Below, in pieces: positions 8,171 to 26,496 of a DNA stretch of 64,000 nt. The DNA comes from a candidate division WOR-3 bacterium (lineage in GTDB: Bacteria; Hydrothermota; Tepidihabitantia; Tepidihabitantales; Tepidihabitantaceae): the NCBI GenBank assembly GCA_039801085.1, contig JBDRTY010000001.1, forward strand, positions 310,852-374,851. The letters are read 5' to 3'. The notes beneath the pieces are model-generated. The model worked only from the letters and a program-made list of their open reading frames with translations. It did not search any database and was not told where the DNA came from. The position numbers and the translations under genes were made by a program. Each line of letters opens with the position of its first letter. The stretch's first letter is position 1.

Positions 8171-8494
8171 ATGATGATCCTCCTGACCCTTTTGCGGCTG
8201 AACCGGACGAGTATGAACCAGCTTGTCCAGACACTGGGGCTCTCGCGGGCAAATGCGAGCGGTCTGGTGGACCGGCTGGTGAGAAAGGGGCTGATCGAGC
8301 GCCGGCGTTCCGAGCAGGACCGGCGGCTGGTGCTGATTCAGCTGACTTCAGAGGGACAGCGGTTGGCACACCACCTTGCCCGGCAGAACCGGCAGGGGCT
8401 GCGCCGGATGATGAAGCGGATTCCCGAAGCCGATCTCAAGGTGTTCATTCAGACCCTGGAGCAGCTGGCGCTCGGCCTGGCGGACGGCGACTGA
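8171..8494 (+). CDS. MarR-family transcriptional regulator. The real start is probably upstream via a non-ATG codon (frame open from 8045).
   Basis: Winged-helix core LSRANASGLVDRLVRKGLIERRRSEQDRR. The upstream in-frame stretch LEWLGPLLVRGLKLL...EALGQEFSFSQ looks like a MarR N-terminus. Confidence 0.7.
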   Translation: MMILLTLLRLNRTSMNQLVQTLGLSRANASGLVDRLVRKGLIERRRSEQDRRLVLIQLTSEGQRLAHHLARQNRQGLRRMMKRIPEADLKVFIQTLEQLALGLADGD

Positions 8495-8504
8495 TCTTTT
8501 TTTC

Positions 8505-8539
8505 TTGACTGATAGTTAACATTATTTACAATTAACTAT
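8505..8539 (+). promoter_or_regulatory. Sigma70-like promoter (TTGACT-N16-TACAAT) overlapped by the inverted repeat ATAGTTAA-N12-TTAACTAT. Candidate MarR operator for the exporter operon.
   Basis: -35 at 8505..8510, -10 at 8527..8532. Palindrome arms at 8512..8519 and 8532..8539. It lies between marR and the MMPL gene. Confidence 0.5.
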
Positions 8540-8584
8540 GTTTACATTTTATATTATTAACGGTAAACCGGGGGTAAACTGCTG

Positions 8585-10837
8585 ATGCGGTGGCTGCCGA
8601 GGCTGGTATACCGGTATTCGGTCTGGATTACAGCCGGAGTCGGGCTACTGACGCTGGTGCTGGGCTATTTCCTCAAGGAGCTGAAGATTGATGCGGAAGT
8701 CACCAGGATGATGCCTGCCGGTGAGGCGGGAGTTGAGGTGCTGCGGGTGGTGGACCGGGAGTTTGGCGGTTCGGAGCAGGCAATTGTGGTTATTGAGTCC
8801 GAAAGTCTCTTCAGTCCGACGGTGCTTTCCGGTATCGAAAGACTGGTAGAACAACTGTCAGCCATTAGTACGGTCAATCAGGTGACCGCGCTGAATAATC
8901 TGCAGGATGTCCGCGGAAGCGGTGATGAGGTGGTGATATCCCGGCTGATTGATTCCATTCCGTCAACCCGGGCGGGTCTGGAGTCACTGCGTGCCCGGGT
9001 ACTTGCTGACCGGCGTTACCGGGGCAGGCTGGTAGCAGAGGATGGGAAGGCAGCGCTGATTCTGGTCCGGCTCAGACCTGATGTGGACAAGGCGCAGGCG
9101 ATCCGGCAGATTGAGACGGCAGTTAAACAGGCACACTTTCCGGGCCGGGTTTCCCTTGCGGGGTCACCGGCGCTGATGGAGTTTGTCCGGCGCTGGATGG
9201 TTGCTGATCTCTTGAAGCTGATTCCGCTGGTAGTGCTGGTGCTGCTCATGGTTCTGGGGGTGGCGAGCCGGACCTGGGGCGGAACACTGCTGCCACTGCT
9301 GGTCGTGCTGGTGGCGGTTGTCTGGACGATGGGGCTGGTCGGGCTGTTCCGCCAGCCGGTGACGATTGTAATGGTTGTGCTGCCACCGATTCTGCTTGCT
9401 GTCGGCAGCGCCTACGGGATTCACATTTTGGAACGCTGGCAGCAGGAGAGTCGCAATGGTCTGGACCGGCGGGAAGTGGTGGAGCGGGCGGTCGGCAGAA
9501 CCGGGGTGCCGGTCTTCCTGGCGATGGTTACCACTGCTGCGGGATTTGCTGCCAACCTGGTGATGAAGGTAGTAGCAATCAGGGTCTTTGCTCTGTTTGC
9601 TGTTGTCGGGATTGCGGTTTCCTTTGTGCTGGCGGTCGTCTTTCTGCCGGCACTGCTGATGCTGCTGCCGGTGAAGCCGGCAAGAGTCCGGTCAGAAACT
9701 CCTTCCCGGTCAGCCCGATGGCTGGGTCAGTTTGCTCAACGGATTATCCGGTTCAGAACCACGGTGCTGATAATCGCAGTGTTTGTATTCGTGATCGCTC
9801 TGCTGTCCGGGAGCCGGGTCAGACCGGAGACCGATTTTGTCCGCTATTTCAAATCCGGTTCCGAACCTGCCCGGGCAGCAGAGATTGTCAACCGGCAGTT
9901 CGGTGGTGAACTGCAGTTTGAGATTCTGGTCGAGGGTGATATTCAGGACCCGGCGGTATTAAGCCAGATGGAAAAATTCAGCAGTGACCTGGAGCAGATT
10001 GAGCATATCACTCATATCAGCTCAATCGTTGAGGTGCTGAAATCAACCAACCGGGCATTCAATCAGAACCGGCAGGATGCTGAGGTGCTGCCTCAAAACC
10101 GGGATGAGGTTGCTCAGTATCTTCTCCTGCTTTCCTTTTCCGGTTCCGACTACCTTGCCAGTCTGGTGACCCCCGATTACCGGCTTGCCCGGATCACCGC
10201 CCAGTTCAACGAGCACAGCAGTGCGGAGCTGGGGAGGGCGATTAGAGAGATCCGAGCGCTGATCAGAAGGGATTTCGGTCCGGAGGTCCGGGTCCGGCTG
10301 GGCGGTGTACCGCTGGCGATCTATGCCCTGCATGAAGGGATCGCCACAAGCCAGCTCTGGAGCATCATTGCTGCCCTGCTGGCGGTTGTGGCGCTGGTCG
10401 CAGTGATGTTCCGTTCACTGAGGCTGGGTCTGGCTGCGGTCCTGCCGGTCGGCTTTACCTTGGCAATGGCGTTCGGGCTGATGGGGCTTTTCGGGATCAG
10501 GGTGGATGTGGTGTCCGCAATGCTCGGTTCGATTGCGGTGGGTATCGGGATTGATTATTCCTGCCATCTGATCGCCCGATTCCGTGAAGAGTCAGGAGAA
10601 AAGGATATCAGGTCACGACTGACCCGGACCGTGCAGGCGGTCGGACCACCGATTCTCACCAATGCACTCGCGGTCGGGCTGGGCTTTGCGGTGCTCGGCG
10701 GTTCGTCGCTGATGATTGTGCAGAAATTCGGACTGCTGATTGCCGGGGCGATGCTTTTTTCCGGATTTGCCGCACTGCTGCTCGTGCCGGCAGTGCTGGC
10801 AGGGGTTTTAAAGACAAACCAAGGAGATAAAAAATGA
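8585..10837 (+). CDS. MMPL/RND-superfamily exporter (12 TM, two-domain)
   Basis: 750 aa with two blocks of hydrophobic helices separated by periplasmic domains. HpnN/MmpL-like architecture. Confidence 0.7.
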   Translation: MRWLPRLVYRYSVWITAGVGLLTLVLGYFLKELKIDAEVTRMMPAGEAGVEVLRVVDREFGGSEQAIVVIESESLFSPTVLSGIERLVEQLSAISTVNQVTALNNLQDVRGSGDEVVISRLIDSIPSTRAGLESLRARVLADRRYRGRLVAEDGKAALILVRLRPDVDKAQAIRQIETAVKQAHFPGRVSLAGSPALMEFVRRWMVADLLKLIPLVVLVLLMVLGVASRTWGGTLLPLLVVLVAVVWTMGLVGLFRQPVTIVMVVLPPILLAVGSAYGIHILERWQQESRNGLDRREVVERAVGRTGVPVFLAMVTTAAGFAANLVMKVVAIRVFALFAVVGIAVSFVLAVVFLPALLMLLPVKPARVRSETPSRSARWLGQFAQRIIRFRTTVLIIAVFVFVIALLSGSRVRPETDFVRYFKSGSEPARAAEIVNRQFGGELQFEILVEGDIQDPAVLSQMEKFSSDLEQIEHITHISSIVEVLKSTNRAFNQNRQDAEVLPQNRDEVAQYLLLLSFSGSDYLASLVTPDYRLARITAQFNEHSSAELGRAIREIRALIRRDFGPEVRVRLGGVPLAIYALHEGIATSQLWSIIAALLAVVALVAVMFRSLRLGLAAVLPVGFTLAMAFGLMGLFGIRVDVVSAMLGSIAVGIGIDYSCHLIARFREESGEKDIRSRLTRTVQAVGPPILTNALAVGLGFAVLGGSSLMIVQKFGLLIAGAMLFSGFAALLLVPAVLAGVLKTNQGDKK

Positions 10838-11562
10838 AAAGGATGCAAGCTCTCACTTTAATTCTACTGTGCCTCAGTGCCGTAGTAGCGGCAATGAGCG
10901 GCGATGAGGTGCTGAACCGGATGCGGCAGGCAACGACCGCCGCAGACCGCCGGATTGAGGCGGTAATGAGGATTACCGATAAGAACGGCCGGGTTCAGGA
11001 GCGGGTTCTGCGGATGGTGATGAAGGGTGATAATAAACTGCTGGTGCGGTTTCTTGAGCCGGCAGATTTGCGCGGGGTCAGCTTCATGAGCACATCTCCG
11101 GAAAATATGTGGGTTTATCTGCCATCACAGGGCAGGGTGCGCCGGATTTCCGGCAGTGCGGCTGAAGCCAGTTTCGGCGGTTCGGATTTCTCCTACCGGG
11201 AAATGGCAAACATCTCCTTCGGCTCCAGCCGGGTGCGGGGTGTGCCGGTTGAGACCGAGCTCAACGGTGTCCGGGCGTATCAGCTGCTGATTGATGACGG
11301 CGGGACCCAGAGCCGGCTCTGGGTGGAAAAGGAGCGGTTTCTGCCTCTGCAGGTAGAACAGCTGGACCGGGAGGGCGGGGTGCGCAAGCGCATCATCTTT
11401 GCCGAGTTCCAGCAGGAAAAAGGGGTCTGGATGCCCTGGCTCATCCGGCTGGAAAACAGGGCAAAGGGCAGTGTTACCGAACTGCGGCTGAGAGGTGCGG
11501 AACTGAACATCGGAATCCGGGACAGCTATTTTTCTGAGGAGAATATGAAGAAAGGAGGATGA
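10834..11562 (+). CDS. Outer-membrane lipoprotein-sorting (LolA-like) protein
   Basis: Signal peptide, 242 aa. This protein is a conserved partner of RND/MMPL exporters. Start overlaps the upstream stop. Confidence 0.5.
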   Translation: MKRMQALTLILLCLSAVVAAMSGDEVLNRMRQATTAADRRIEAVMRITDKNGRVQERVLRMVMKGDNKLLVRFLEPADLRGVSFMSTSPENMWVYLPSQGRVRRISGSAAEASFGGSDFSYREMANISFGSSRVRGVPVETELNGVRAYQLLIDDGGTQSRLWVEKERFLPLQVEQLDREGGVRKRIIFAEFQQEKGVWMPWLIRLENRAKGSVTELRLRGAELNIGIRDSYFSEENMKKGG

Positions 11563-11563
11563 G

Positions 11564-12871
11564 ATGGCGGTCTGGGCATTGATTTTCAGTCTGCTGTCTG
11601 CGGGTCAGGTTCCGGTTCAGGGCGAGCTGTCCAGCCGGGCGCTTTTCCGGATCGAGGATCGCGACAGCTCCCGTTTCAGTTTCTTTAATACTGCCGGCAG
11701 TCTGGTTTTTACGCCGCTGGCAAATGAAAGGCTGGAAACAAAGCTCGGGTTCACAATCCGGGCACAGGGGTTTCCGCTGATAAACAGTGCGACCCAGCTC
11801 AGTGAGGCGGACATCGTTGAACCGGTGAGTGTGCTTCTTGATGAGGCATATGTCCGGTTTTACGACCTGGTGCCGGGTTTGAGTTTTACCGCAGGCAGAC
11901 AGCGGGTGCACTGGGGCAGTGCGGATGTGATCAATCCGACCGACAACTTTACCACTCCGGACTATTCCGATCCGCTTGTCTGGGACCGCCGGCGACCGGT
12001 CTGGATGCTGCATCTGGGATATTCACCATTAAACGCACTGGGTATGGAGTTCGGTCTGAAACCGGTTTTCGAGCCTGCACTCAACCCGCCTGGTTCCTGG
12101 TATGATGCCAGGATTCTGCCGACCGCCCAGGAGTTGCGTTCCGCTCTGGTGGCACAGCTGATCGGCATGGGCTATGACCCGGTGCTTGCGGAGCAGATTG
12201 CGGGTCAGTTTGACATCCGCATCCGGGAGCTGATGAACCTGCCGGATCAGACACTGAAGGATCTCACCTGGGGTGGCAGGGTCAGGACCCATCTCGGCAG
12301 GTTTGATTTCTCGCTCAGCGGTCTGCGCGGATATGACTTTCTTCCTGAGGCACAGCCGGTTTTGACGACCGATTTTGCCCAGCAGCGACTGGATTTTGTG
12401 CTTAATGAGTTCTTTCCGCAGAAGACGGTTTTCGGTGCGGATCTGGCAACCGAGCTTGCCGGGATCGGGCTGTGGGCAGAGGCGGCATATGCCTTTTACG
12501 ATGACACCATGCTCAGTGACCGGCTGTCGGTAATCGGTGGCATAGACTACTCATTTGCCGGTTTTTATCTCAACCTCCAGTATCTGCACGGCGATTTTCC
12601 GCTTGCCCGGCTTCAGACTGAGCCGGTGCGGGACTTTCTGCTTGCCGGACTTGAGCACCGGTTCATTTCGGACCGGCTGCTGGTCCGGCTCGGCGGGGTC
12701 CTGGAGCTGGAAAAGCGCTCATTCGGGCTGATACCGCTGGTGCGAATTACACCGGTAAGCGGACTGAACCTGGAGCTGACCGGACTGGTGTTTTCCGGAA
12801 AAACCGGTTCCGCATTTGCACCTCTGGACCGGGTGCGGGAACTGGGTTTTGGAATCAGTTATCAGTTCTGA
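11564..12871 (+). CDS. Outer-membrane beta-barrel protein (DUF1302/alginate-export-like), exporter-associated
   Basis: Alternating amphipathic beta-strands and a C-terminal ...GISYQF ending in Phe. Third gene of the marR-MMPL cluster. Confidence 0.5.
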   Translation: MAVWALIFSLLSAGQVPVQGELSSRALFRIEDRDSSRFSFFNTAGSLVFTPLANERLETKLGFTIRAQGFPLINSATQLSEADIVEPVSVLLDEAYVRFYDLVPGLSFTAGRQRVHWGSADVINPTDNFTTPDYSDPLVWDRRRPVWMLHLGYSPLNALGMEFGLKPVFEPALNPPGSWYDARILPTAQELRSALVAQLIGMGYDPVLAEQIAGQFDIRIRELMNLPDQTLKDLTWGGRVRTHLGRFDFSLSGLRGYDFLPEAQPVLTTDFAQQRLDFVLNEFFPQKTVFGADLATELAGIGLWAEAAYAFYDDTMLSDRLSVIGGIDYSFAGFYLNLQYLHGDFPLARLQTEPVRDFLLAGLEHRFISDRLLVRLGGVLELEKRSFGLIPLVRITPVSGLNLELTGLVFSGKTGSAFAPLDRVRELGFGISYQF

Positions 12872-12889
12872 GTTTGCAGGAAGGGAGAG

Positions 12890-12960
12890 CTGGGGGACAG
12901 GGATTCGAACCCCGACTAGCTGGTCCAGAGCCAGCCGTCCTACCGTTAGACGATCCCCCA
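12890..12960 (-). tRNA. tRNA-Gln (anticodon CTG)
   Basis: Cloverleaf on the reverse complement: acceptor TGGGGGA/TCCCCCA, T-loop GGTTCGAATCC, anticodon loop CTCTGGA. Confidence 0.7.
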
Positions 12961-13029
12961 GTGCGATAAAAGATTAATTCTGGAGAGATCAAAGTCAAGT
13001 CAGTCCGGCATCCTTCTGAGGAGTGGTGA

Positions 13030-13057
13030 TTGACACCTGCTGATGATGCAATATAAT
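13030..13057 (+). promoter_or_regulatory. Sigma70-like promoter TTGACA-N16-TATAAT. It predicts a leaderless GTG start at 13066.
   Basis: -35 at 13030..13035, -10 at 13052..13057. Only 8 nt separate the -10 from the start codon. Confidence 0.45.
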
Positions 13058-13065
13058 GGCTAATC

Positions 13066-14295
13066 GTGCGATTTGCAAGATTATTATCCTTCCTGCTGCC
13101 GGTTTTCATTCTGCTGATACTTTTTTCCGCCTGTGCCCGGCATGAGGTCAAGCCGGCAGAGCGGTTCGTGACCGTCTTTGTTTCCTCTGGACTCACACCC
13201 GAGGGGCGGGCAGGAATGGCAAAACTGGTGGCGGAGATAAGAGGCAGAACACCGGTTATCTGGATTGACGGTGGCATCTCAGCAGACACCCGCGGACCGC
13301 TCCGGTTCAGCGATGGTGAACTGCTTACTGACCTGCCCTCGGCTGCGGGGTGCGATGTGGTCCTGCTGACTTCGGACTGGCTCGGGTTCGGGGTGAACCG
13401 GCTGAAACTGCTGGTGGACCGGGCACGGCTGCGGGTGCTGTGTGCCAATCTTGAGGACAGCCTGGGCATGCCGGTTGCCCATCCCTGGATGACCAGAAAT
13501 GCCGGCGGGATCAGTTTCGGTATCACCGCGCTCTATACCGACACCAGCGACTGGCGCCGGTATCAGCAGGGATTAAGGCTGATTTCCCCTGAATATGCGG
13601 CAAGGAAGATTTCCGGGCTTATTGCCCGCAATACCGATTTCCGGCTACTCATTCTGCCCGCAGGCGCCAGTGGTCAGTTCAGCGGTTATGACCTGACTTT
13701 AACCGCTGAGCCGGGCAGGGTTTTCCGTTATGATCTGGTATTCCTTGGTTCCCGGCTGAACAACCTGACAAAAACCGAGCTTGACCTGAATTCACTTGTG
13801 CCCGAACCCGCGGTTCAGCAGCGGATTGACTCCCTGCTTGCGGAATATGAAACCCGGGCACAGGCACCGGTTATCGAGAGCCGGGTAAAAATTCCGCCCC
13901 GGATTCTGCGCAAGGCGGTCATTGACGGGCTGATGGACCTGAGGCTGGCAGAGGTGATTGTCTATGATACGCTCCGGCTGGTCCGGGATACGATATTTCC
14001 CGGTATGATCACCCAACGCCGGCTGGCTGAGGTCTTTACCGAACCCGGCAGATGGGCGCTGGTCCAGCTGGAGGGGAGCGAAATCCGCCAGCTTGCCAGT
14101 CAGCCGGGATTGAAAATTGAGACCAGAAAAAATCTGCCCGGTGGCAGACTGATGGCACACAAGAGATACCGGGTAATGATGCCTGCGAGTCTGCTTGAGG
14201 CGCATCCGGAAATCTATACCCGCGGGTTTGAATTCACACTCCTGCCCCTTTATCAGTATGCGGCGGACATCCTGCAGGCACAGGGGAAGCGATGA
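13066..14295 (+). CDS. Lipoprotein with a 5'-nucleotidase C-terminal-like domain (hypothetical)
   Basis: Lipobox LFSAC. C-terminal segment GMITQRRLAEVFTEPGRWALVQLEGSEIRQL resembles the UshA C-terminal fold pattern. Confidence 0.45.
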   Translation: MRFARLLSFLLPVFILLILFSACARHEVKPAERFVTVFVSSGLTPEGRAGMAKLVAEIRGRTPVIWIDGGISADTRGPLRFSDGELLTDLPSAAGCDVVLLTSDWLGFGVNRLKLLVDRARLRVLCANLEDSLGMPVAHPWMTRNAGGISFGITALYTDTSDWRRYQQGLRLISPEYAARKISGLIARNTDFRLLILPAGASGQFSGYDLTLTAEPGRVFRYDLVFLGSRLNNLTKTELDLNSLVPEPAVQQRIDSLLAEYETRAQAPVIESRVKIPPRILRKAVIDGLMDLRLAEVIVYDTLRLVRDTIFPGMITQRRLAEVFTEPGRWALVQLEGSEIRQLASQPGLKIETRKNLPGGRLMAHKRYRVMMPASLLEAHPEIYTRGFEFTLLPLYQYAADILQAQGKR

Positions 14296-15014
14296 GCGGG
14301 TTCAACCTCCATTTCCGCTGGGGCAGGTTCATCTGGACCGTGCTGATCACCGTTTACTTTCTGATTTTTTTCACCAATTTCTTTCACGATGCGGCACCGG
14401 AACGGGCGATTCTGCCTACACTCTTTGCCTGGATTTTTGTCCTGTGGCTCGGAGTGGAGTACTACTTCGGTTCCCCATTCTTCCAGTCCGGAGTGGTTGA
14501 GCCCCACGGCTTCTGGCGGGCACTCTTCGCCTTCTATGTCTATCCGCTGCTCGGCTATCTGGGAGCGGACTATATCTGGTGGCGTTTGACCCAGATTCCC
14601 CTGCCACCCGCGGTTTTCGGAGTATTAGGGCTGCTGATTTTCGGTTTCGGAACCTGGCTCCGGCTGGCAACCCTTTTCGGCATTCTCCGCATCATCCAGC
14701 GCAAATCGGGCAGTGGTGAACTGCTCATACCGACAAAGAAGTTTCTGGGGCTGAAATTTCAGCGGCTCTGCCGGCATCCGCGCTATCTTGGCACTCTGAT
14801 TCAGCTGCTGGGTGCAGCGCTGGTGTTCAACTCCTGGGGAGGGGTGGTGCTGGTGCTGGGGCTGGGACTGCCGCTGATCTGGGCACAGGTGCGTTATGAG
14901 GAGCGGGTTCTTAAGGCAAATATGAGACCGGATTATGAGGCATATTCCAGGACCGTGCCGGTGCTCCTGCCGGCATTGAACCGCCATCCCCAGAAAACAG
15001 CACGGCAGGCATGA
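14292..15014 (+). CDS. Isoprenylcysteine carboxyl methyltransferase (ICMT/PEMT) family membrane methyltransferase
   Basis: Multi-TM protein with RHPRYLG and downstream E..L motifs. Start overlaps the upstream stop. Confidence 0.6.
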   Translation: MSGFNLHFRWGRFIWTVLITVYFLIFFTNFFHDAAPERAILPTLFAWIFVLWLGVEYYFGSPFFQSGVVEPHGFWRALFAFYVYPLLGYLGADYIWWRLTQIPLPPAVFGVLGLLIFGFGTWLRLATLFGILRIIQRKSGSGELLIPTKKFLGLKFQRLCRHPRYLGTLIQLLGAALVFNSWGGVVLVLGLGLPLIWAQVRYEERVLKANMRPDYEAYSRTVPVLLPALNRHPQKTARQA

Positions 15015-15021
15015 CCACAGA

Positions 15022-15050
15022 ACCGGGGCCAGCCCCGGGCATGCCCCTCT
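15022..15050. repeat. Second copy of the GC-rich palindromic element (see 1297..1321)
   Basis: ggggccagccccgggcatgcccctc lies immediately after the ICMT stop. Confidence 0.5.
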
Positions 15051-15194
15051 GATTAAAGTTTCGGATTAACTCTTTTATCTAAAATACCAATATACCGAAT
15101 GTTATGCATTAAATAAAACCGGCTGTGAAATCCTGCCCGGTTCCGGACTCTAACTGTATGAAGAAAGGAAAGAGCAAACTGAAAGGAGGAAGTT

Positions 15195-15563
15195 ATGAAC
15201 AGTAACACCCTGAAAAGGGTTCAGAAATGGCAGGTCAAGACCGAGCCGGAGCGGGTTTGTGAACTGCTTCGGGCACTCCGGTCCGGGATGGTGAAAAACA
15301 CCGAGCTGATGCAGGAGCTTTTGGTGGAGATTGAGACCCGGGTCCGGCAGGTGCTGAATGACGCCGGGGTGGTGACCATCCTTTATCCCTTCTATCTCAA
15401 CTTCGGAAGGGAGGTGTTTGCCCGCCGGCTGCGGTTTGCCGGACAGTCACTTTTGATTGAGGTTGATGTGCTGCTGGAGAAATGGGTGCGCCGGGGTCTG
15501 GACCGGCAGGTGCTTGAGCGGATCCGGGATGAGGTGTTCACCCTGACCGAGCCGGAGGATTAG
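15195..15563 (+). CDS. Hypothetical protein
   Basis: AAAGGAGG RBS 5 nt upstream. 122 aa. Ends with TAG. Confidence 0.5.
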   Translation: MNSNTLKRVQKWQVKTEPERVCELLRALRSGMVKNTELMQELLVEIETRVRQVLNDAGVVTILYPFYLNFGREVFARRLRFAGQSLLIEVDVLLEKWVRRGLDRQVLERIRDEVFTLTEPED

Positions 15564-15658
15564 CCGGTTTTGTCGGTGCCGGATTTGCCTGGATGGTGAT
15601 TCTGGATAAAATTCTGAATGTGAAGGCGGTAGATACGCAAATGACGGAGGTGACAGTT

Positions 15659-16645
15659 ATGCGTTTCAGGACCGTTCTGATCCTGACCGTCCTCTGCCTC
15701 GCTGGGTGCCGGCTGTTTCCGAATCGTCCGGAGGTGATTAACTATCAAACCGGCGGTCAGGTTGAGGACCTGTGTATTTATGGCAACCGGCTGTTTATCG
15801 CCAACGGTGATTCCGGGGTGCTGGTGCTGGATGTGACCGAGCCGACCGCACCCGTCAAGGTGGCGGAGCGGAAGTTCCCTTACTATCACTTCCGAGCCAT
15901 TCACGCCTGCGATACGCTTGTTTTTGCCGGCACCGATTCGGGCCATATCTTCCGGTTCATCCTCCGGGACACCGCGCTGATCCTGGTCAGTCTGCAGGAT
16001 TTCACCCTTACGGGTCCGATTGTCGGAATCACCTACACCAAGTACCCGAGCTTTGCCTATGTGCTGACCCCGAAGAAGCTGGCGGTCTTCATGCCCGAAC
16101 CCTGGCATTACAAGGAGAAACTGCTTTATTACAGCGATGCGGTGGACATTGATGGCCGGAATAACGAATATGATGTCAAGGTTGCCCAGCGGAATGACGG
16201 GGTCAGGGTTTTCTTCGCCCAGCTGGTGGCGGATACGCTGGTAATAAACCACACCGATTTTTTTTACGATTACGAGGGTATGGAGGGGATATTCCGCAAT
16301 GACGCCTACATTGGCCAGCGGGGTCTGTTTATCGCCGAGGGCGCAGACGGACTCTGGGGGGTGGGGATCGGACCTCCCAACGGTGGGGATACACTTTACC
16401 GCTTTGACACCCGCGGATTTGCCTATGACGGCTGTGCCAGCGGGGAGTATGTGTATGTGGCGGATGGCGGCGGGGTGAGTGTGCTCAAGATGAGCCTCAG
16501 CGAGAAACTGCGGGAGGTGTGCTATCTGGAACTGCCGGGATTGACGAGAAAACTGGTTGCCTACAATGACATTCCGGGCAACCGGTTCTACATCTTTGCC
16601 GCCTCCGGCGCCGGCGGACTGCACATCTTCAAACAGTGGCGATGA
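15659..16645 (+). CDS. Lipoprotein with LVIVD-type beta-propeller repeats
   Basis: GGAGGT RBS. Lipobox LCLAGC. Repeats GVLVLDVTEPTAPV and YVYVADGGGVSVLKMS. The overlapping 354-aa minus-strand ORF was rejected. Confidence 0.55.
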   Translation: MRFRTVLILTVLCLAGCRLFPNRPEVINYQTGGQVEDLCIYGNRLFIANGDSGVLVLDVTEPTAPVKVAERKFPYYHFRAIHACDTLVFAGTDSGHIFRFILRDTALILVSLQDFTLTGPIVGITYTKYPSFAYVLTPKKLAVFMPEPWHYKEKLLYYSDAVDIDGRNNEYDVKVAQRNDGVRVFFAQLVADTLVINHTDFFYDYEGMEGIFRNDAYIGQRGLFIAEGADGLWGVGIGPPNGGDTLYRFDTRGFAYDGCASGEYVYVADGGGVSVLKMSLSEKLREVCYLELPGLTRKLVAYNDIPGNRFYIFAASGAGGLHIFKQWR

Positions 16646-17571
16646 GCAGGCGGTTGCTTCTGGTGCTGAGCGGACTGATTATTTCCGCCTGCTGCTGCCG
16701 GATTGAAAGCGGACAGCAGAAATTCAACGACTACCTGATCCAGCTTCAGAATGTGGACTTGGAGGCGATCGGAAACACCCGGTTTGATCTGGTGATTATT
16801 GACTATTCCCGGGACGGGAGTGAGGAGGGGCGGTTCAGCCCTGATGCGATCCGGGCGCTGAAGACCAGCCCTGGTGGCAGTAAGCTGGTGATTGCCTATC
16901 TGAGCATTGGTGAGGCGGAATCCTACCGCTGGTACTGGGACAGCCTGTGGGATGCGGATCGGGACGGCCGTCCGGATCCGGGTGCGCCCTCCTGGCTTGG
17001 TGATGCCAATCCGGACTGGCCGGATAATTACAAGGTCCGCTACTGGGAGCAGGGCTGGCAGGAAATTATTTATCTTTACCTCGACAGGATCATTGACGCC
17101 GGTTTTGACGGTGTCCTGCTGGATGTGGTTGACGCCTATGAATACTGGGGTCCGGAGGGAGAGAGCGGGGCAGAGTTTGCACCGGCAGCTTCGGAAATGG
17201 TCCGGTTTGTCAGCGGGATTGCCTCCTATACCCGGCAGGTGCGCGGCCGAAGCGACTTTCTGGTCATTCCCAACGGCGGTGAAGGTCTGGGGGAGTTTGA
17301 TGAGTATCGCACCGTGGTCTCTGCCATTCTGCGCGAGGATGTCTGGTATTACGACAACAGCCCGCAGCCGCCAGAGGCAACTGCCGAGGTCATTGACCGG
17401 TTGAATCGGTTTCACTCTGAAGGGAAGCCGGTTCTCGTGCTTGATTATGTGACCGAACCGGTGCTCATTGACGATTTTTACGCCCGGGCGGAGTCGATGG
17501 GTTTCATTCCCTATGCCACGGTGCGGGCGCTGGACCGGTTGACAATCAATCCGGGACACGAGCCGGACTGA
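16636..17571 (+). CDS. Glycoside hydrolase family 114-like (TM1410/PelA-hydrolase-type endo-alpha-1,4-polygalactosaminidase) lipoprotein
   Basis: TIM-barrel GH114 pattern (DY...VIAY.S.GE, GFDGV.LD.VD.Y). Lipobox ISAC. Confidence 0.5.
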   Translation: MAMSRRLLLVLSGLIISACCCRIESGQQKFNDYLIQLQNVDLEAIGNTRFDLVIIDYSRDGSEEGRFSPDAIRALKTSPGGSKLVIAYLSIGEAESYRWYWDSLWDADRDGRPDPGAPSWLGDANPDWPDNYKVRYWEQGWQEIIYLYLDRIIDAGFDGVLLDVVDAYEYWGPEGESGAEFAPAASEMVRFVSGIASYTRQVRGRSDFLVIPNGGEGLGEFDEYRTVVSAILREDVWYYDNSPQPPEATAEVIDRLNRFHSEGKPVLVLDYVTEPVLIDDFYARAESMGFIPYATVRALDRLTINPGHEPD

Positions 17572-17667
17572 AGGCGGGGAAATACTTGACAAGGGGTATT
17601 TGTTGAAGCATATTTTATTAAGTGCCAAGTAAGCCGACGCCGTTAATCAGTGCTGTTAGGATAAGCT

Positions 17668-19279
17668 ATGGCTAGTTTACAAGATTTTTCATTGATAACA
17701 TCCGAAATCGCTTACTTAAAGAAAAGATACAGAATAAATGAGTTTTCCCGTGCGTTTATATATGCAGTATTAGAAAAACTATACGAAATCGATATAGATG
17801 AAATAGAAAATTATGTCATAGACGGCGCTTATGATTTTGGCATTGATGCTTATTATTGGGAAGATGCAAGAGCCGACGGAAGAAAAACTATAAATATTTT
17901 TCAATTTAAACATACTGAAAAATTCGAAAATGCGCAAAAAGCAGATGCCTTTCGAGAACGGGATGTTAATGATATTATTGTCAAACTTGAGAGAATCTGG
18001 CATAAAGATGGGTCATTACTGAAATCCCCCAACAGGCGGTTCACGCAGTTAGTCCAGGAGATGTGGGATGCTTTTAATAAAGGGGTAATACAAACGAAAG
18101 TTTGGCTGATTTCTAACTATATTAATTCGATTAGCGATAAGAATAAAATTAAGCATTTCGAAGTGACTGTGCGAGAAAAATTTAAAGCAGATCTTGAAGT
18201 ATGGTCGCTTGATGAATTGGTTTCATTGTTTATAAAAAAAGATTTTCGACCTGTGGATTTGAATTTGCAGTTGAGCGGCAGGCGGTATTTTGATACTACT
18301 ACCGGACAGGTTCGAGCTGTTGTTGGCGTAATTAATGCACATGAACTAATAAAAAAAGTTATCAACGAAAATGATGAATTGAGGGAGGAGATATTTAACG
18401 AAAATATAAGAGTATACTTAACCAGAAATACAAAGGTTAACAGCCAAATTTACAGGACAATAGAAGCCGAACGTGAAAATGCTAATTTCTTTTTCTATAA
18501 CAATGGAATAACAGTAATTTGCGATAGTTTGGTACATGCAAATACAGATAGCCCCGTAGTTGCATTAAAAAATTTTCAGATAGTCAATGGAGGACAAACG
18601 ATTCATGCTCTTTATGAGGCTTATAAAAACAATTTATCTGAGAACATTAAAAACATAGACTTGCTTCTAAGAATTTACGAAGTTAAAAATAGAGATATAG
18701 GACAAGCTATTGCGCGATACACTAACACGCAAAATCCCGTTAGAAGCAGAGATATAATGTCGAACGATCCCGTACAAATTAAAAAAAATAGATGCCGAGA
18801 AGGCGGGGCAAGTAATACTAGCTTTTTATCTGGAGAAGCCAGGAAGCGCTAAGAACAAGAAAAGGGAAATCTTTGGCGATTATTATCAAGAAATATTTGA
18901 TGAAAGCAAAATCGATGCTAAATATGTTCTACTGCCTTATCTGCTTTATGAAAAGATAAATCAAGATATAAGACGAATAAGACAGGAGGAGAAGAAATAT
19001 AAAAGTAATCCTAAAAAGTTGAATGCGTTAGCCAAAGATGAGTTTGTAAAACACGCAGGTTATTATTTATTATTGGGGTTAAAATTTTTTGCTAACAAAA
19101 AGGGGTTAGATTTGAATTTAGATAATACAGGCAAGATCTTTAAAAATTACAAAGATGTTAAAAAAGTTTTAAGAGATATTGTCAAACAACGTATAAGTAG
19201 GTTTCAGGAGAATTTAGTTGATTTGTTCAAAAGTGATGATTTAGTCGAAGAATTGAGGTGTAAGATCTACCAAATATAA
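17668..19279 (+). pseudogene. AIPR-family abortive-infection (phage resistance) protein, disrupted by a 1-nt frameshift in an A8 homopolymer (18781..18788)
   Basis: N-terminal DGAYDFGIDAYY, and the core NFQIVNGGQTIHALYEA (NGxQT). The C-terminal AIPR region IDAEKAGQVILAFYLEKPG...EIFGDYYQEIF continues in the -1 frame from the A-run through to 19279. Confidence 0.65.
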
Positions 19280-19297
19280 ATATAAATAATAGATACC

Positions 19298-20494
19298 ATG
19301 ATTCTAATTTCTATACTAGGAGTATTGGTAATTGTGTTATTTGTAATGTGGTTATCTCGAAGTTCTCAAAAAGCTGCACGTTCAAAAATACACCCCAAGG
19401 GCGAACGGCTAGTAGATGACAGTCACGGTATCTGCAAAAGTGCAAATTTACAATGCGCTGATGATAATGCAGTAGTAGCAGCTACCAATAACGGTTATAT
19501 AATAAATCCTCAAAGCACATTTCCGTTGACCATTTATAACGTTGATCGAGAAACTGCAATTATAATAAAAAAGCTACTTGATACAAAATGCTTTATTGGC
19601 AATGCGCAGGAACTGGTTCCTGTAATTCTTAAAACAAATCTTCGCTGTAAAGAGATCGAGGACTACATCAATACATTCAAACCGCAATATTTTCGTAAAA
19701 TTGAGGAATTGAAACAATCTTCGTCTGAATGGCAATCTGCATCTGAAAAAGATAAAGAGGACTTACTTGCATATTTTCGCGAACAGGCAATTGAATCTCT
19801 GGATATTAGACCATACTGTGACTTGGAGGTATTATTTGAATGTGAACCAGAGGATTTTACCATTGACGACGCTTTGCTTGAGCGATACGGCTATGATGTA
19901 CTACAGGTATATTTAAAATATGCAGGTGATATTAACAAAGTGCGAATCCTACCAGCCGGTCACTTTGAACGTAAAAAATTTGACAGGTTAGTAGAGTTGG
20001 GATTAGCAATAAATGGATATGAAATTGATTCGAAAGCACTTTTAAGCTCGCTGACACTTAAACAGCTTAACGAAATTGCAGCCAGTTTGCAGGAGAAGCC
20101 ATTTAGTCGCAAAAGCAAGGCAATAGAATTTCTAGCGTCACTGCCCGACGTGAGGGGAAAAGTTGGTACTGTGATTGCTCTTAGAGAAGTTTTCCAATTG
20201 CGACCGCTACCGCCAGAATTCTCGCACATAGACCTGAAGAAAATATCTGATATATGGTGTTATGTTTCTGAGATTGCCGAGCTGATAACACATACTTATC
20301 ATATGGGGAATTATGCAAAACAGGACATGCAGAATAATCTTAGTTTGTCCGTAAATATTAGCGAGTGGAAGATTTTGACTGCAGGTGATTCATCGTGCCC
20401 ATATTGCAAGCGTGCTGCGCTCAAAGTATATCCGGCAAATCAGTACCCTAGAGTTCCTTTGCACATAGGATGTAGATGTACAGTAATAAATTGA
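19298..20494 (+). CDS. Hypothetical membrane-anchored protein with a C-terminal Cys/His motif (CPYC...PLHIGCRC), in an operon with the AIPR gene
   Basis: Starts 18 nt after the AIPR stop. One N-terminal TM helix. The C-terminus resembles the conserved motif of phage Mu-F/SPP1 gp7 family proteins. AT-rich like the AIPR gene. Confidence 0.5.
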   Translation: MILISILGVLVIVLFVMWLSRSSQKAARSKIHPKGERLVDDSHGICKSANLQCADDNAVVAATNNGYIINPQSTFPLTIYNVDRETAIIIKKLLDTKCFIGNAQELVPVILKTNLRCKEIEDYINTFKPQYFRKIEELKQSSSEWQSASEKDKEDLLAYFREQAIESLDIRPYCDLEVLFECEPEDFTIDDALLERYGYDVLQVYLKYAGDINKVRILPAGHFERKKFDRLVELGLAINGYEIDSKALLSSLTLKQLNEIAASLQEKPFSRKSKAIEFLASLPDVRGKVGTVIALREVFQLRPLPPEFSHIDLKKISDIWCYVSEIAELITHTYHMGNYAKQDMQNNLSLSVNISEWKILTAGDSSCPYCKRAALKVYPANQYPRVPLHIGCRCTVIN

Positions 20495-20625
20495 CATATA
20501 AGTTTTTTAAATAATTTCAGAAAAAGATATATTCAAGATGCTAAAATTATTCGGCATGGTATCTTCATGATGCCTGTGATTGGGATCACTTACTACGGGT
20601 CAAAGATTGATAAGGTTTTGTCAGG

Positions 20626-20988
20626 ATGAGAGCGAATACCCGCCGGGTGGTGGCGTTTATCGCCGGGAAGCTGATTGCCGGCAGCGGGGCGTGGGCAATC
20701 TATGACTGTGAAGAGGCGCGGAGCTGGCGGTTTTCCGGCAGTGTTTCACCGGAGCAGATCCTTGTTTATGACCCGGAGCAGAGGTGTATGATCAGCGGTT
20801 ATGGTGAGGAGGGCTGTTACTCAATTTATCACCACGGTAACCGGCACCATATTGAGCTGAAGATTGAGGGCAGTGGCTTTGAGGGATATGACTACGGTTC
20901 GAGGTCCCGTTTTTCCGGAAGTGTGGAGGGCAGTTCGGTCGTGATCCTTGACGGTCAGGAGCGGAAGTATTATTACTTTACAATTTAA
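20626..20988 (+). CDS. Hypothetical small protein with an internal duplication
   Basis: Two units, WRFSGSVSPEQILVYDPEQR and SRFSGSVEGSSVVILDGQER. High GC. Confidence 0.4.
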   Translation: MRANTRRVVAFIAGKLIAGSGAWAIYDCEEARSWRFSGSVSPEQILVYDPEQRCMISGYGEEGCYSIYHHGNRHHIELKIEGSGFEGYDYGSRSRFSGSVEGSSVVILDGQERKYYYFTI

Positions 20989-20991
20989 TTT

Positions 20992-23613
20992 TCAGGGTTC
21001 GGTGACAACAATCAGCCGGTCGGGTTTGATGTCTTTGAGGGTCACGGTCTTGCCCGGGGCAAACCGGACCTGAACCGTGACCGGCCGGTCCGAGCTGCCC
21101 AGGCCGAAGTGGGCTAAAAGGGAGTTCTGGCTGGTGGTGCCTTTCCCACCCTCAATCTCGCGGATATAACGCTTTCTGCCCTGAATCACCGTGACCCGGG
21201 CGCCAATACCGCAGGCGTTGTGTTTTGTGCCGACTACCCGGACCTTGAGCCAGTGGTTGCCGTTTTTCGTGTCGTTGCGGAAGAGGCGCAGGCCGGAGCC
21301 GGAGCCAACCACCAGATCGAGATCGCCGTCGTTGTCAAAATCAGCCAGGGCACAGCCCCAGCCGTTGAAGACCCGGGTGCCGGAAAGATAGGTGGCTTCC
21401 GCAAAGGGGTAGTTGCCGAAGAGGTTCTGCCAGCCGGCAGTCGCCTGGCGCGGTGCGGGGTTGAGCTGGTTGAGGTAGAGGAAGGAGCGCCGGTTTTCAT
21501 AAACGGAGGTGATGTAGAGGTCGAGATCGCCGTCGTTGTCTAGGTCGCCAAATGCCGGATCAGAGTGGGTCTCTTCGTAGCGGATGCCAAGCCGGGCGCG
21601 GCGGTCAAGGAAGCGGGGCTTCGCCTTCGGTCCGCGGTTTTCGTAGAGCAGGGAGCGGTCGGAGAATTCTATGTAGCGGGGATGGGCAAGGTTGGCACAG
21701 AAGAGGTCGAGGTCGCCGTCGTTGTCAAAATCTGCCCAGACCGAGCCGATGGTATGGCCAAACCAGCCGGAAATCTCATTGCCGGCAATCCCCAGTTTCG
21801 GGGCAAGGTTGGTGAAGGTGGAGTCGCCGTTGTTGTGCCAGAGGAGGTTCTGGCAGAGGCGGTAGTTGGCAACATGGCAGTCCGGATCACCGTCGTCATC
21901 GTAATCACCCCAGTTGACACCTCTGCCCGCAAGGTCCTCACCATAGGGCGGAGTGATGCCGGCACGGGTGGTGATGTCCTGAAATCTGCCCTGCTGGTTT
22001 TGATAGAGCCGGTCCGGATACCAGGTGTGTTTTTCCCAGTTTTCGTAGTTGGCACAGTAGAGGTCGAGCCAGCCGTCAAGGTCAAAGTCGGCAGCAGCAC
22101 AGCCTTCGGTCGGATAGGGGTCCGAGGGGTTGCCGAGCGATTCGGTGGCGTTGCGGAATCTGCCGCAGTGGTTGAGGAGGAGCCAGTCCTGAGTGTCCGC
22201 ACCGCAGATGTAGAGATCGAGCCAGCCATCGTTGTTAAAGTCGGCAAAGATGCCACCCCTGCCCCGGATGCCCGTAAGTCCCGCTGAATCGGTGAGTTCG
22301 GTGAAGTGTCTGCCGGAGTCGTTGCGGAAGAGGCGGGAGCCGTTGAGCAGGAGGTCTTCAAAGCCGTCATTGTTAAAATCGCCCCAGGCAACCCGGGATT
22401 CCCGGCAGCCGGCAAGTCCGGCCGAGTCGGTGATGTCGGTGAAGACCGGTCCGGTGTAGGAGAGTTGCTGGCGGGCAAGCATAAGCTGCCGGGCAGGGGG
22501 GATGCCGAGCCGCTGGAGCGCGGTGTCTGCCCGGGCAGACCAGTAGTTGCGAGAGTCGCCGAGTACGAGCGCGGTCAGGTAGCAGAGCCGGGCGCTGTCG
22601 GGCCTGCCCAGCCGGGAGTAGGCATCGCCGAGCAGGGACCAGAAGGGTGCAGGGGTGAATTCGTTTTCGGTGTCCCAGGAGAATTGTTGCAGGGCTTCGT
22701 AAAGCACGGGCAGTGCCTCCCGGGGGCGGTCCTGAAGGATGAGCGCCTCAGCGAGCGCGGCACGGGCAAGTCCGGCAAGGGGCGGGTATTCGAGCTGCCA
22801 CTGGGCAGGGGGTTTGTTTTTCGGCTTTTTCGCTCTGGGCGCCAGCTGGAGCGCACGGCGGGCATACTGTTCCGCAAGCCGGGGCCGGAATCGGAGCCGG
22901 TTGTAGAGGGCAGCGGCATAGCGGTAGCGGAAGGGGTCCAGGGAGTCGTCTTTGAGCATCTCCCCGGTGAAGTGGGCAAGACCGAGGGTGTCGTTCAGGG
23001 CGTAGAGTGAGCTCAGGAGATAGATGTAGAAGGTCTGGCGCCATTCGGTCCTGGGATAGCGGGCAAGGAAGCGGGAGATGACCAGGACTTTGGCGGTGTC
23101 GTTGGTCCAGACCGGATAGAGGGAGTCGTAGAAGGCAGAGCCGATGAGTTCATAAACCGGGGCTGAGTCCGGATATTTGAATGCCAGGACGCTGAAGGCG
23201 CGCCGGGCACGGAGGGAGTCTTCGCCGAGGACAAAGCCGGCGTGGGCAAGGAGGAGGTTGCGGTAGGTGGTGTCAATGAAGTAGCCGCCGGCTTCAGCGC
23301 GGATGAGCTGGCGGACCGAGTCGAGCCGGGCGGAGTCCGGGCGGTGAAGGTTGCAGAGCGCCTGCCATCTGCCAATGACCGCCGAGTCGTCGTCGGGCCT
23401 TGCTTTCAGCACCTTTTCCCAGAAGTAGAGGCTGGAGTCGTACCGGCGCCAGTGATCATAGACCCGGGCAAGGTCTTTGAGCAGTGCCGGGTTTTGCGGC
23501 TGGCGCTGGAGCCGGGCGTAGTAATAATCGGTGGCAGCCGGATAGTCCTGCCGGGCAAGAAAGTCCTGCAGTGCCGGCCGGGCGGTGAGGATGAGGAGTG
23601 AAATCAGGAGCAT
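20992..23613 (-). CDS. TPR + FG-GAP/VCBS-repeat + ASPIC/UnbV-domain protein (CRTAC1-like)
   Basis: N-terminal TPR-like helices. Seven repeats of ADFNNDGWLDLY / DFDNDGDLDL type. C-terminal UnbV/ASPIC-like segment. Confidence 0.6.
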   Translation of the reverse strand: MLLISLLILTARPALQDFLARQDYPAATDYYYARLQRQPQNPALLKDLARVYDHWRRYDSSLYFWEKVLKARPDDDSAVIGRWQALCNLHRPDSARLDSVRQLIRAEAGGYFIDTTYRNLLLAHAGFVLGEDSLRARRAFSVLAFKYPDSAPVYELIGSAFYDSLYPVWTNDTAKVLVISRFLARYPRTEWRQTFYIYLLSSLYALNDTLGLAHFTGEMLKDDSLDPFRYRYAAALYNRLRFRPRLAEQYARRALQLAPRAKKPKNKPPAQWQLEYPPLAGLARAALAEALILQDRPREALPVLYEALQQFSWDTENEFTPAPFWSLLGDAYSRLGRPDSARLCYLTALVLGDSRNYWSARADTALQRLGIPPARQLMLARQQLSYTGPVFTDITDSAGLAGCRESRVAWGDFNNDGFEDLLLNGSRLFRNDSGRHFTELTDSAGLTGIRGRGGIFADFNNDGWLDLYICGADTQDWLLLNHCGRFRNATESLGNPSDPYPTEGCAAADFDLDGWLDLYCANYENWEKHTWYPDRLYQNQQGRFQDITTRAGITPPYGEDLAGRGVNWGDYDDDGDPDCHVANYRLCQNLLWHNNGDSTFTNLAPKLGIAGNEISGWFGHTIGSVWADFDNDGDLDLFCANLAHPRYIEFSDRSLLYENRGPKAKPRFLDRRARLGIRYEETHSDPAFGDLDNDGDLDLYITSVYENRRSFLYLNQLNPAPRQATAGWQNLFGNYPFAEATYLSGTRVFNGWGCALADFDNDGDLDLVVGSGSGLRLFRNDTKNGNHWLKVRVVGTKHNACGIGARVTVIQGRKRYIREIEGGKGTTSQNSLLAHFGLGSSDRPVTVQVRFAPGKTVTLKDIKPDRLIVVTEP

Positions 23614-23654
23614 CAGAGGATAAATTTAGGGGTAAAATTTCAGGAAGTCAATAG

Positions 23655-24773
23655 TTAAAGCAGGGGCAGTTCGTAGAGCCGGTAGCGCTTGTAGATCCTG
23701 CCACCGATCGCCAGGTCAAACTGGTTGATCGGGTCGTTGTCCTCGAGGTTCCAGCCGAGTTCGCACCATTTGTAACCTTTGCGTGCGGCATTGCGCTCAG
23801 TCTCGTAATAAAGCACCGCAATGATGCCGGTGTTGCGGAACTCCTTTTTGACCCCGCCAATCAACGCCCGAACACCATCAATCCTTTTGCGGTAATAGAG
23901 CAGTTTGACCAGCTCCAGCGGTCCGAGCCTGCCATTGAGGTGTCTGAGCACCTGATTCCAGTCCGGAATGGTGACCGTGACTCCGACCGGCTGACCGTCA
24001 ATTTCCGCAAAGAGCACCAGGTCCGGATCAGCAAGCTGTTTCAGCTTGCGGGCGGTCAGGTCCATCTCCTTGTCGGTCATGGGCACAAAGCCCCAGTTTT
24101 TCTCCCAGGCGGAGTTGTAGATGTCCTTGAGAAACTGGATGTCCCGCTCAAACCGCTTCATATCAAAGGGACGGACCCTGACGCCGGTGCGGCGCTTGAT
24201 CGCATTGATCATCCGCTCAATCCGCTCCGGAATGCCGTCGGCTGCCAGTTTCAGGAGGGCATAAAGGTCCTTTGCCTTGTGGAAGCCGTAGCGCTCGGCG
24301 AACTCCAGGTAGTATTTATGCGTGTAAGGCATCATGATCGTCGGCGGTTGAGCAAAACCTTCCAGCAGGAAGGCACATTCGTCGTTGAGGCTGGGGTTGA
24401 CCGGTCCGCGCAGCCGTTCCATTCCCTGATTTTTCACCCATTCGCGGGCGGTATCCCACAGTTTTTCGGCAACCAGGTAGTCTTCAATACATTCAAAGAA
24501 GCCGAAGAAGCCGGTCTTTTCCTGATGAAAGCGGTTGTGGTTGTCGTCAATAATCGCCGCAATTCTGCCGACCGGCGTTGCATTCTGCCGGGCAAGGAAC
24601 AGTTCGCGCCGGGCATGCTCCCAGAACGGGTTTTTTGCGGTGTCAAGGGTCTCATGGACCTCGGAAATCAGGGGCGGCACCCAGTAGGGGTTGCCCTGAT
24701 AGACTTTCCAGGGGAGGCGGATGAAGTCAGTCAGGTCTTTTTTGCTCCGGACCGGTTCAATTGAAATTCCCAT
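23655..24773 (-). CDS. Hypothetical protein, possibly a GNAT-fold N-acyltransferase family member
   Basis: 372 aa with good coding composition. Only a weak resemblance to two-domain GNAT/FemAB-like proteins. Confidence 0.35.
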   Translation of the reverse strand: MGISIEPVRSKKDLTDFIRLPWKVYQGNPYWVPPLISEVHETLDTAKNPFWEHARRELFLARQNATPVGRIAAIIDDNHNRFHQEKTGFFGFFECIEDYLVAEKLWDTAREWVKNQGMERLRGPVNPSLNDECAFLLEGFAQPPTIMMPYTHKYYLEFAERYGFHKAKDLYALLKLAADGIPERIERMINAIKRRTGVRVRPFDMKRFERDIQFLKDIYNSAWEKNWGFVPMTDKEMDLTARKLKQLADPDLVLFAEIDGQPVGVTVTIPDWNQVLRHLNGRLGPLELVKLLYYRKRIDGVRALIGGVKKEFRNTGIIAVLYYETERNAARKGYKWCELGWNLEDNDPINQFDLAIGGRIYKRYRLYELPLL

Positions 24774-24901
24774 TGATCATCCTTGGTTTCCTGAATGCCC
24801 TACCAAAAAATGATAATATGAAAAATTGTGAAAGTCAAATTGCTGAGTGCATATTTTGATTTGGTCAGCGGTTTGATTATTGTTAAGAAAAGGAGTGATA
24901 A

Positions 24902-26488
24902 ATGGTCAGAATATTACCACTGGCTTTGATGCTCGCAGCCGGGCTGGCAATGCCACCCGCACCGGGTTTTCAGGGACCGATGCCGGTCTTTCCGCCCGGG
25001 GTCGAGGTTCCCGGTCCGAATAAACTGAAGGGTTATGATTTCTGCGAGACGGTGACGATCCTGATGCAGTTTCCGGACAACCGGGCAGACACGGTTGAGC
25101 ATTCACCTGCCAGGTTTGATTCCATGCTGTATTCGACCGGGGTCTACAATAATGCGCCCTACCGGGCAGGGAGTCTGAACGATTTCTTTCTGGAGAACTC
25201 TTATGGTCGGTATTCGGTGCGGGGCGGGGTTGCCGGCAATCGGTGGTTTCTGTCCCGGTACAATTATTCCCGGTATTATGACGGTAATTACATGCTTTCC
25301 ACCGGCGGTCAGCTTGCCCGGGAGAATCTCGAGCAGGTGGATTCGTTTGTTGATTTCCGGGAGTATGACATTGATGGGGACGGGCATGTTGATGCGCTGT
25401 TTATGGTTCATGCCGGGGCGGACGGCGCGGATAATGGGGATGTGAATTGTTGCTGGTCGCATGCGATTCCCGGTTTTAATTACCGGACGAATGATGGGGT
25501 GGTCATTGACGGGGTGACGAATGTGCCGGAGTTTGCCATGGTGACCGAAACCCGGGATACAACGCTGTGTTGTATTGCGGTGATGTGTCATGAGCTGGGG
25601 CATCTGGTCGGGCTGCCGGATCTGTATGACTATTCCCGTTACAGCTGGGGTGTGGGCTATTGGGGGCTGATGGGCTATGGTGCCTGGGGTGCGGGCGGTA
25701 ATACGCCGTGGAGTCCGGCGCATATGGAGGCGTGGAGTAAGGTTGAGGCCGGTTTTGTGCAGCCGGTGGTGATTGCCCGCGATACTTTCGGGCTGCGGAT
25801 TGTGGATGTGGAGACCCATCCGGTGGTCTATAAGGTCTGGCGTCAGGGGAGGAGTTGTGATACCTGTTTTCTGCTGGAGAATCGGCAGAGGAAGGGGTTT
25901 GATGCGCTGCTGCCCGGGTCCGGGCTTTTGATCTGGCACATTGACCCGTATTACAGCGCCTATCATAATCGGGTGGATCTGGAGGAGGATTCGACTAATC
26001 ATCTGGACCGGGGTAACGGGGTGAGGCCGGATCCGCATGTCTATCATGAGGCGCTGGGCGATACCTCAGATCCGCTGCCCGGGATCTGGAACCGCACGAG
26101 TTTTGATAACTGGTCCAATCCTTCGAGCCGGGCAAGGAACGGTCAGCCGACCTGGGTGAGTGTGAGGAATATCCGGGAGGTGGGGGATACGATTGTGTGC
26201 GATGTGAGTTTTGACTCAAGTCAGGTTGGAGTTGAGGAGCCGGAGCGCCGGGTGCCGGGGTTGAGGGTTGAGCCGGGGATATCCCGGTCCGGATTCAGAG
26301 TTGAGGTTGAGGGGGGAGGACCGGTTGCGGTGGCAGTTTTCAGTAGTGATGGCAGGAGGGTTTGGAGCGGAGTGGTGCCGGAGCGGGGCTGGTGGAAGGG
26401 GGTTGACAGTCAGGGGCGGAGGGTTGGGAGCGGTGTTTATCTGGTGCGCGCCGGGAGTTTGACCCGGAGGGTGGTGTTGGAGCGATAG
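24902..26488 (+). CDS. M6-family (immune inhibitor A-like) zinc metallopeptidase with a T9SS C-terminal domain
   Basis: HExxH as CHELGH, with TIGR03296-like flanking motifs (MVHAGADGA, WSHA). Signal peptide. C-terminal CTD ...GVYLVRAGSLTRRVVLER. Confidence 0.65.
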   Translation: MVRILPLALMLAAGLAMPPAPGFQGPMPVFPPGVEVPGPNKLKGYDFCETVTILMQFPDNRADTVEHSPARFDSMLYSTGVYNNAPYRAGSLNDFFLENSYGRYSVRGGVAGNRWFLSRYNYSRYYDGNYMLSTGGQLARENLEQVDSFVDFREYDIDGDGHVDALFMVHAGADGADNGDVNCCWSHAIPGFNYRTNDGVVIDGVTNVPEFAMVTETRDTTLCCIAVMCHELGHLVGLPDLYDYSRYSWGVGYWGLMGYGAWGAGGNTPWSPAHMEAWSKVEAGFVQPVVIARDTFGLRIVDVETHPVVYKVWRQGRSCDTCFLLENRQRKGFDALLPGSGLLIWHIDPYYSAYHNRVDLEEDSTNHLDRGNGVRPDPHVYHEALGDTSDPLPGIWNRTSFDNWSNPSSRARNGQPTWVSVRNIREVGDTIVCDVSFDSSQVGVEEPERRVPGLRVEPGISRSGFRVEVEGGGPVAVAVFSSDGRRVWSGVVPERGWWKGVDSQGRRVGSGVYLVRAGSLTRRVVLER

Positions 26489-26496
26489 GAGGAGGA

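Follow-up and report, generated by a model that had tools for sequence, protein, structure and literature searches.

Introduction

Is the AIPR gene of a candidate division WOR-3 bacterium interrupted by one surplus base, as a genetic switch or a sequencing error might produce, or has a larger part of the gene been lost? This question is raised by a stretch of 64,000 nt (hereafter the window; GenBank assembly GCA_039801085.1, contig JBDRTY010000001.1, positions 310,852 to 374,851, forward strand), in which a gene of the AIPR/AbiU1 family changes reading frame at a run of eight adenines (A8). The original prediction, made from the sequence alone, held that one extra A in this run truncates the protein. 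Comparison of the gene with its homologues points to a different history. A defence gene of the AIPR/AbiU family, acquired by horizontal transfer, was probably inactivated by an out-of-frame deletion of ~83 nt, which left A8 as its scar and the gene as a young pseudogene. AbiU1/AIPR is an abortive-infection family that is often linked to restriction-modification (RM) systems, type III in particular (PMC3506569).

Reading frames and identity of the AIPR gene

The 5' part of the gene is an open reading frame (ORF) of 394 aa at 17668..18852 on the plus strand (NCBI MEO0020842.1), which terminates in frame 1 with ...DPVQIKKNRCREGGASNTSFLSGEARKR followed by a stop codon. Residues 1-371 of this ORF are homologous to AIPR proteins, and the final 21 (NRCREGG...RKR) stem from read-through in the wrong frame. 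The 3' part lies on the same strand in the +1 frame at 18782..19279, is free of stops and encodes KKIDAEKAGQ...CKIYQI up to the terminal stop codon. This frame stays open between ~18755 and its stop codon (19277-19279) and gives ...KKIDAEKAGQVILAFYLEKPGSAKNKKREIFGDYYQEIF...; gene callers report just an 86-aa ORF (19019..19279) within it. When one A is removed from A8, a continuous ORF of 536 aa is obtained. The position of A8 (18781..18788), the frame-1 stop at 18852 and the course of both frames were thus described correctly in the original prediction.

The family assignment is also well founded. The protein with one A removed matches Pfam PF10592 with 126.7-127.7 bits (cut-off 25) and passes the gathering threshold, and the gene matches the AbiU entry of PADLOC (4.8e-44), in agreement with the prediction of an AIPR gene interrupted by a frame change at the A-run. 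The family motifs FFYNNGIT..CD, QIVNGGQT and YTNTQNPV are retained, and the GenBank record MEO0020842.1, located on a contig of 934,845 bp from a metagenome-assembled genome (MAG), is named "AIPR family protein [candidate division WOR-3 bacterium]". The downstream frame had been said to look like a typical AIPR C-terminus; this is supported by alignment to homologues, but the downstream 163 aa alone give no Pfam AIPR match.

A conserved segment is absent at the frame change

Relatives of the reconstructed protein were searched for among 5.8 billion clustered proteins, which yielded 267 relatives, 120 of them listed. The best relatives cover 99-100% of the query, are 47-58% identical to the reconstruction along its full length and, at 558-566 aa, are ~25-30 aa longer. 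Each full-length homologue is encoded by one ORF of 550-600 aa, and none of them has a frame change at the junction site. A metagenome scan with the single AIPR protein gave no relatives, and alignment-based scans of genomes and metagenomes gave, among the matches listed, mostly distant relatives (<=47% identical).

The difference in length is located precisely at A8. Between DPVQI and KKIDAEK, the window lacks a segment with the consensus KLQxELxxxG(W/F/Y)YYERKKYxxRDxxIxxE. All 118 of the listed homologues that span this site (118/118; 22-58% identity) hold 24-33 residues there, and the window holds none. In an alignment with 16 homologues, the protein corrected to seven adenines (A7) shows a gap of ~29 columns at DPVQI/KKIDAEK, so that a conserved segment of ~28 aa is missing exactly at the A-run of the fused ORF. 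The Pfam matches show the same break. Intact homologues cover the AIPR profile from position 1 to 292-299 of 308 in a single stretch (172-174 bits), whereas the corrected protein matches positions 1-130 only and its match ends at residue 371, which is the junction. Therefore, the full domain is not covered in one frame by the window gene, even with one A removed. Neither a displaced copy nor a remnant of this segment turned up anywhere in the 64,000-nt window.

The segment is both conserved and structured. Across 79 sequences, reaching down to 22% identity, Y378 never varies, and conservation is at least 90% at L367, R380 and K381. In an AlphaFold model of an intact homologue, P0001 (mean predicted local distance difference test score (pLDDT) 91.3; predicted template modelling score 0.85), the segment corresponds to residues 366-393 and is predicted to comprise the end of a helix (362-373), a strand (377-379) and a loop leading to a further strand (395-397), with pLDDT values of 85-94 for these blocks. 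The original claim that an extra A truncates an otherwise intact protein is therefore not upheld, since the conserved segment is gone as well.

The junction at the nucleotide level

The DNA of close homologues was retrieved through exact-protein matches, and the codon-level comparison was made between the window and four homologue loci (L162, L164, L165 and L166). Homologue DNA reads CAA ATT AAA TTA CAG, then ~26 codons, then GAA AAA AAG ATC GAT GCA GAA AAA. At the junction, the window reads CAA ATT, followed by A8 and TA GAT GCC GAG AAG (in context, CAAATT-AAAAAAAA-TAGATGCC). By this comparison, A8 is composed of the remainder of the Lys codon after 'QI' and the AAA AAA A of 'KKI'. The flanking Lys codons should have contributed ten A's, and eight are left. 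With 27 intervening codons the loss amounts to 81 + 2 = 83 nt and with 28 codons to 86 nt; in both cases the loss is 3n+2 nt, and the frame is therefore shifted.

The run itself is unremarkable for such an A-rich gene. The A content is 38.5%, AAA accounts for 24 of the first 373 codons, and two A7 runs are present in the same gene. Shuffling of its nucleotides or codons produces a run of at least eight A's in 32-40% of cases, so that A8 does not stand out statistically. The original prediction had proposed to look for a poly-A tract at the same position in intact homologues; at the matching codons, their A-runs are incidental, in frame and interrupted, and extend to just A4 to A7.

Probable deletion and loss of function

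These observations fit the following sequence of events. The AIPR/AbiU-family gene would have entered the genome by horizontal transfer inside a low-GC cassette and settled downstream of a GH114 glycoside-hydrolase gene, at a spot that varies between strains. Horizontally gained defence genes are frequently lost or broken. Here, inactivation would have come about through a single internal deletion of 3n+2 nt (~83 nt) that began and ended within A-rich codons for Lys and Glu (...CAA ATT AAA | TTA CAG ... GAA | AAA AAA ATA GAT...), upon which the surviving A's would have merged into A8. Through this event ~28 conserved residues would have been lost and the frame shifted, with translation ending 21 codons on, at 18852. 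The remaining 165 codons would still be free of stops only through the recency of the deletion. A single deletion event mediated by microhomology between A-runs is the simplest history that we infer from the junction, and the deletion appears to be recent. Judged from the sequence and the structural model, AIPR function has most likely been abolished by the loss of a structural element together with the frame shift.

Several points weigh against this interpretation or soften it. An in-frame deletion of 84 nt followed by a slip of +1 A fits the data equally well. The loss of function is deduced from conservation and predicted structure, and the lack of further stops in the rest of the gene may reflect selection on some product. 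An intact allele may also coexist in the population, or the region may have been collapsed by the assembler. As for the sequence itself, a Logan contig of 29.7 kb (SRR30574052_34314; run SRR30574052) is 100% identical to window positions 7668..28852 (21,185 nt), A8 included, but the Logan and GenBank assemblies were probably built from the same reads and are hence not independent. The agreement therefore rules out a polishing quirk, though not a bias at the level of the reads. A second MAG (L173; locus tags ABIK38_) is 99.8% identical across window positions 14136..18071 and has the left side of the island in common, but its contig reaches just the first 404 nt of the AIPR gene and another one starts inside the downstream 398-aa ORF, which leaves the junction uncovered. 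The break of this contig in low-GC DNA could result from low coverage of AT-rich DNA or from strain heterogeneity.

Alternative explanations

Two alternatives place the cause in the data. A one-base sequencing or polishing error, with a true A7 and one ORF carrying an in-frame deletion of 28 codons, is unlikely. Homopolymers are the usual sites of indel errors, and the 934,845-bp contig would fit a long-read assembly, but the Logan assembly of run SRR30574052 also has A8. In addition, two other 8-base homopolymers in the window (T8 at 16258-16265 and G8 at 36331-36338) lie in unbroken ORFs and genes tile the window densely; the intact frames at these runs indicate that the assembly is not riddled with homopolymer indels. 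Even with A7, the gene would lack the conserved segment and remain damaged, so that the sequencing error put forward in the original prediction would not alter the conclusion. It is a little harder still to believe that the entire deletion was produced in assembly or belongs to a minority allele and that the dominant genome has an intact AIPR protein of ~564 aa. The failure of the related MAG to assemble across this part of the island would allow for such heterogeneity. However, two assemblers give the same sequence, a false join in a de Bruijn graph would take more microhomology than the at most 9 nt at the junction, and identity to the reconstruction does not exceed 58% for any of the 5.8 billion clustered proteins, so that no intact allele is on record.

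The other alternatives take A8 as real and functional. Slipped-strand phase variation, in which A8 and A7 would represent the OFF and ON states and the ON state would produce a working AIPR protein lacking 28 aa (delta-28), is very unlikely. In its favor, contingency tracts commonly reside in defence genes, A7 restores a single frame of 536 aa, and both halves are free of stops. Against it, the ON product would be without the segment kept in 118/118 homologues; since the A7 protein lacks the helix-strand element that holds the invariant Tyr and the near-invariant Arg and Lys, a phase switch would have no ON state. The ON/OFF switch suggested in the original prediction fails on this point, as A7 gives the delta-28 protein and not the wild type. 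Moreover, eight A's form a short tract for an efficient switch, a run of at least this length arises by chance in 32-40% of the shuffles, intact homologues show only the incidental in-frame A4 to A7 runs, and the one other assembly that covers the junction (A8, probably from the same reads) shows no length variant. A related and even more improbable view is that A8 arose by accident and that slippage during replication or transcription now lets a subpopulation make a delta-28 AIPR protein with some defence or toxic activity; if true, a contingency locus would have been caught at birth. Programmed +1 ribosomal frameshifting or transcriptional slippage on A8, giving a fused product besides the 394-aa product, is the most far-fetched. 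A-runs of at least eight can provoke slippage of RNA polymerase in some bacteria, and the downstream frame is indeed +1 relative to the upstream frame. Sites of recoding are normally conserved, however, and this A8 site is unique to the locus: the frame change is conserved in no homologue, all of which are single ORFs of 550-600 aa, and the fused product would again be without the conserved segment.

Taken as a pseudogene formed by deletion, the locus carries a lesson for annotation: the "repair" of a frame by one base in a homopolymer is no proof of a one-base lesion. A larger deletion was hidden at the same spot and was revealed by alignment to homologues. MEO0020842.1 would be better handled as a pseudogene fragment. 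The biology is ordinary, namely one more broken, horizontally acquired defence gene, in this case in a candidate division WOR-3 genome.

Comparison with known systems

The window gene resembles the AIPR/AbiU1 family (PF10592; PADLOC AbiU; PHROG 1841 'Abi alpha-like') in its significant Pfam and PADLOC matches, in the motifs that are kept and in its identity of 47-58% over the full length to AIPR-annotated proteins. It differs in that its domain goes no further than profile position 130 of 308, the KL..YERK segment is deleted and the frame is shifted. The genomic context differs as well. In keeping with the reported link of the family to RM systems (PMC3506569), homologues adjoin RM methyltransferases (a type III methyltransferase at one locus and an N6_Mtase/Eco57I gene at another), whereas the window copy has no adjacent methyltransferase. 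With phase-variable RM and defence genes, such as the type III mod genes of Haemophilus, Neisseria and Helicobacter, the locus shares a homopolymer at the point of the frame change inside a defence gene. In contrast to these genes, restoration of the frame does not give back the ancestral protein, and the tract is short, made by deletion and unconserved in homologues, with no length polymorphism observed.

With regard to function, a comparison of the AIPR protein with solved structures gave no match at the sequence level. In the N-terminal part of AIPR, the conserved D..D..D...K residues are consistent with the nuclease matches, as is the QIVNGGQT core with the ParB-like ones; on this basis, the family is inferred to be a nucleic-acid-targeting defence enzyme. 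The apparent order of domains, a nuclease-like N-terminus followed by a ParB-like core, differs from that of the ParB/DUF262-type nucleases (GmrSD/BrxU, SspE and DndB), in which DUF262 is followed by an HNH-type nuclease.

The low-GC island and neighboring genes

The AIPR remnant and the 398-aa ORF (ORF398) together occupy a strain-specific island at 17644..20600, recognized from its composition and from the contigs of relatives. Its GC content is ~33%, compared with 57% in the flanks and the genome. Comparison with the relatives sets the left edge; the right edge is an approximation taken from composition, because the contigs of the relatives end. Three related WOR-3 contigs (L174, L175 and L176) are 97-98% identical to the window and collinear with it up to 17643, after which they diverge. 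In L174, the AIPR gene and ORF398 are replaced by a gene for 263 aa (11003-11879), which has a GIY-YIG-like N-terminus and weak matches to RAMA and DUF4357. The divergence at 17643 and the different gene in L174 thus reveal a strain-variable cargo spot downstream of GH114. Accordingly, the AIPR cassette has been acquired recently and is of foreign origin. The best-matching AIPR proteins show 55-58% identity, and those that are named come mostly from Patescibacteria.

At the point of divergence (window 17634-17650), GCCGTTAATCA is present as a single copy in the window, and in L174 (10993-11040) it is split by ~23 extra bases (GCCGT-CATTTATCAGGTCCCTGTTTCCA-GCCGTTAATCA). The motif is a possible short repeat at the boundary of the cargo. 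A search for direct or inverted repeats flanking the island gave nothing convincing. Upstream of the AIPR start, a promoter-like site (TTGACA, 17-nt spacer, CATATT; 17586..17614, plus strand) agrees with the consensus at 10 of 12 positions and is proposed from this match; it sits in the flank that is common to the relatives. Terminator and promoter scans at the island did not exceed the expectation from shuffled sequence.

The neighboring gene in the island, ORF398, is intact (19298..20494, plus strand; 389 aa at NCBI, MEO0020844.1) and has no Pfam or PADLOC match. Its family consists of unnamed hypothetical proteins of ~400 aa in MAGs of Saccharicenans, Elusimicrobia and Nitrospirota. Distant members of the family match PF04233 (Phage_Mu_F), and the C-terminus of ORF398 itself carries a Phage_Mu_F-like CxxC...HxxCRC motif (CPYC...PLHIGCRC). 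ORF398 was considered as a partner of AIPR and rejected, as no homologue occurs in the ~165 AIPR loci that were retrieved and the gene stands alone elsewhere. Its relatives in other genomes adjoin helix-turn-helix or BglII-type genes, and ORF398 may have an accessory or defence role of its own. Further downstream, a 120-aa ORF (20626-20988, plus strand), for which no match was found in Pfam, PADLOC or PHROGs, lies between the island and the TPR/FG-GAP/UnbV_ASPIC gene and is of intermediate GC content (~52%).
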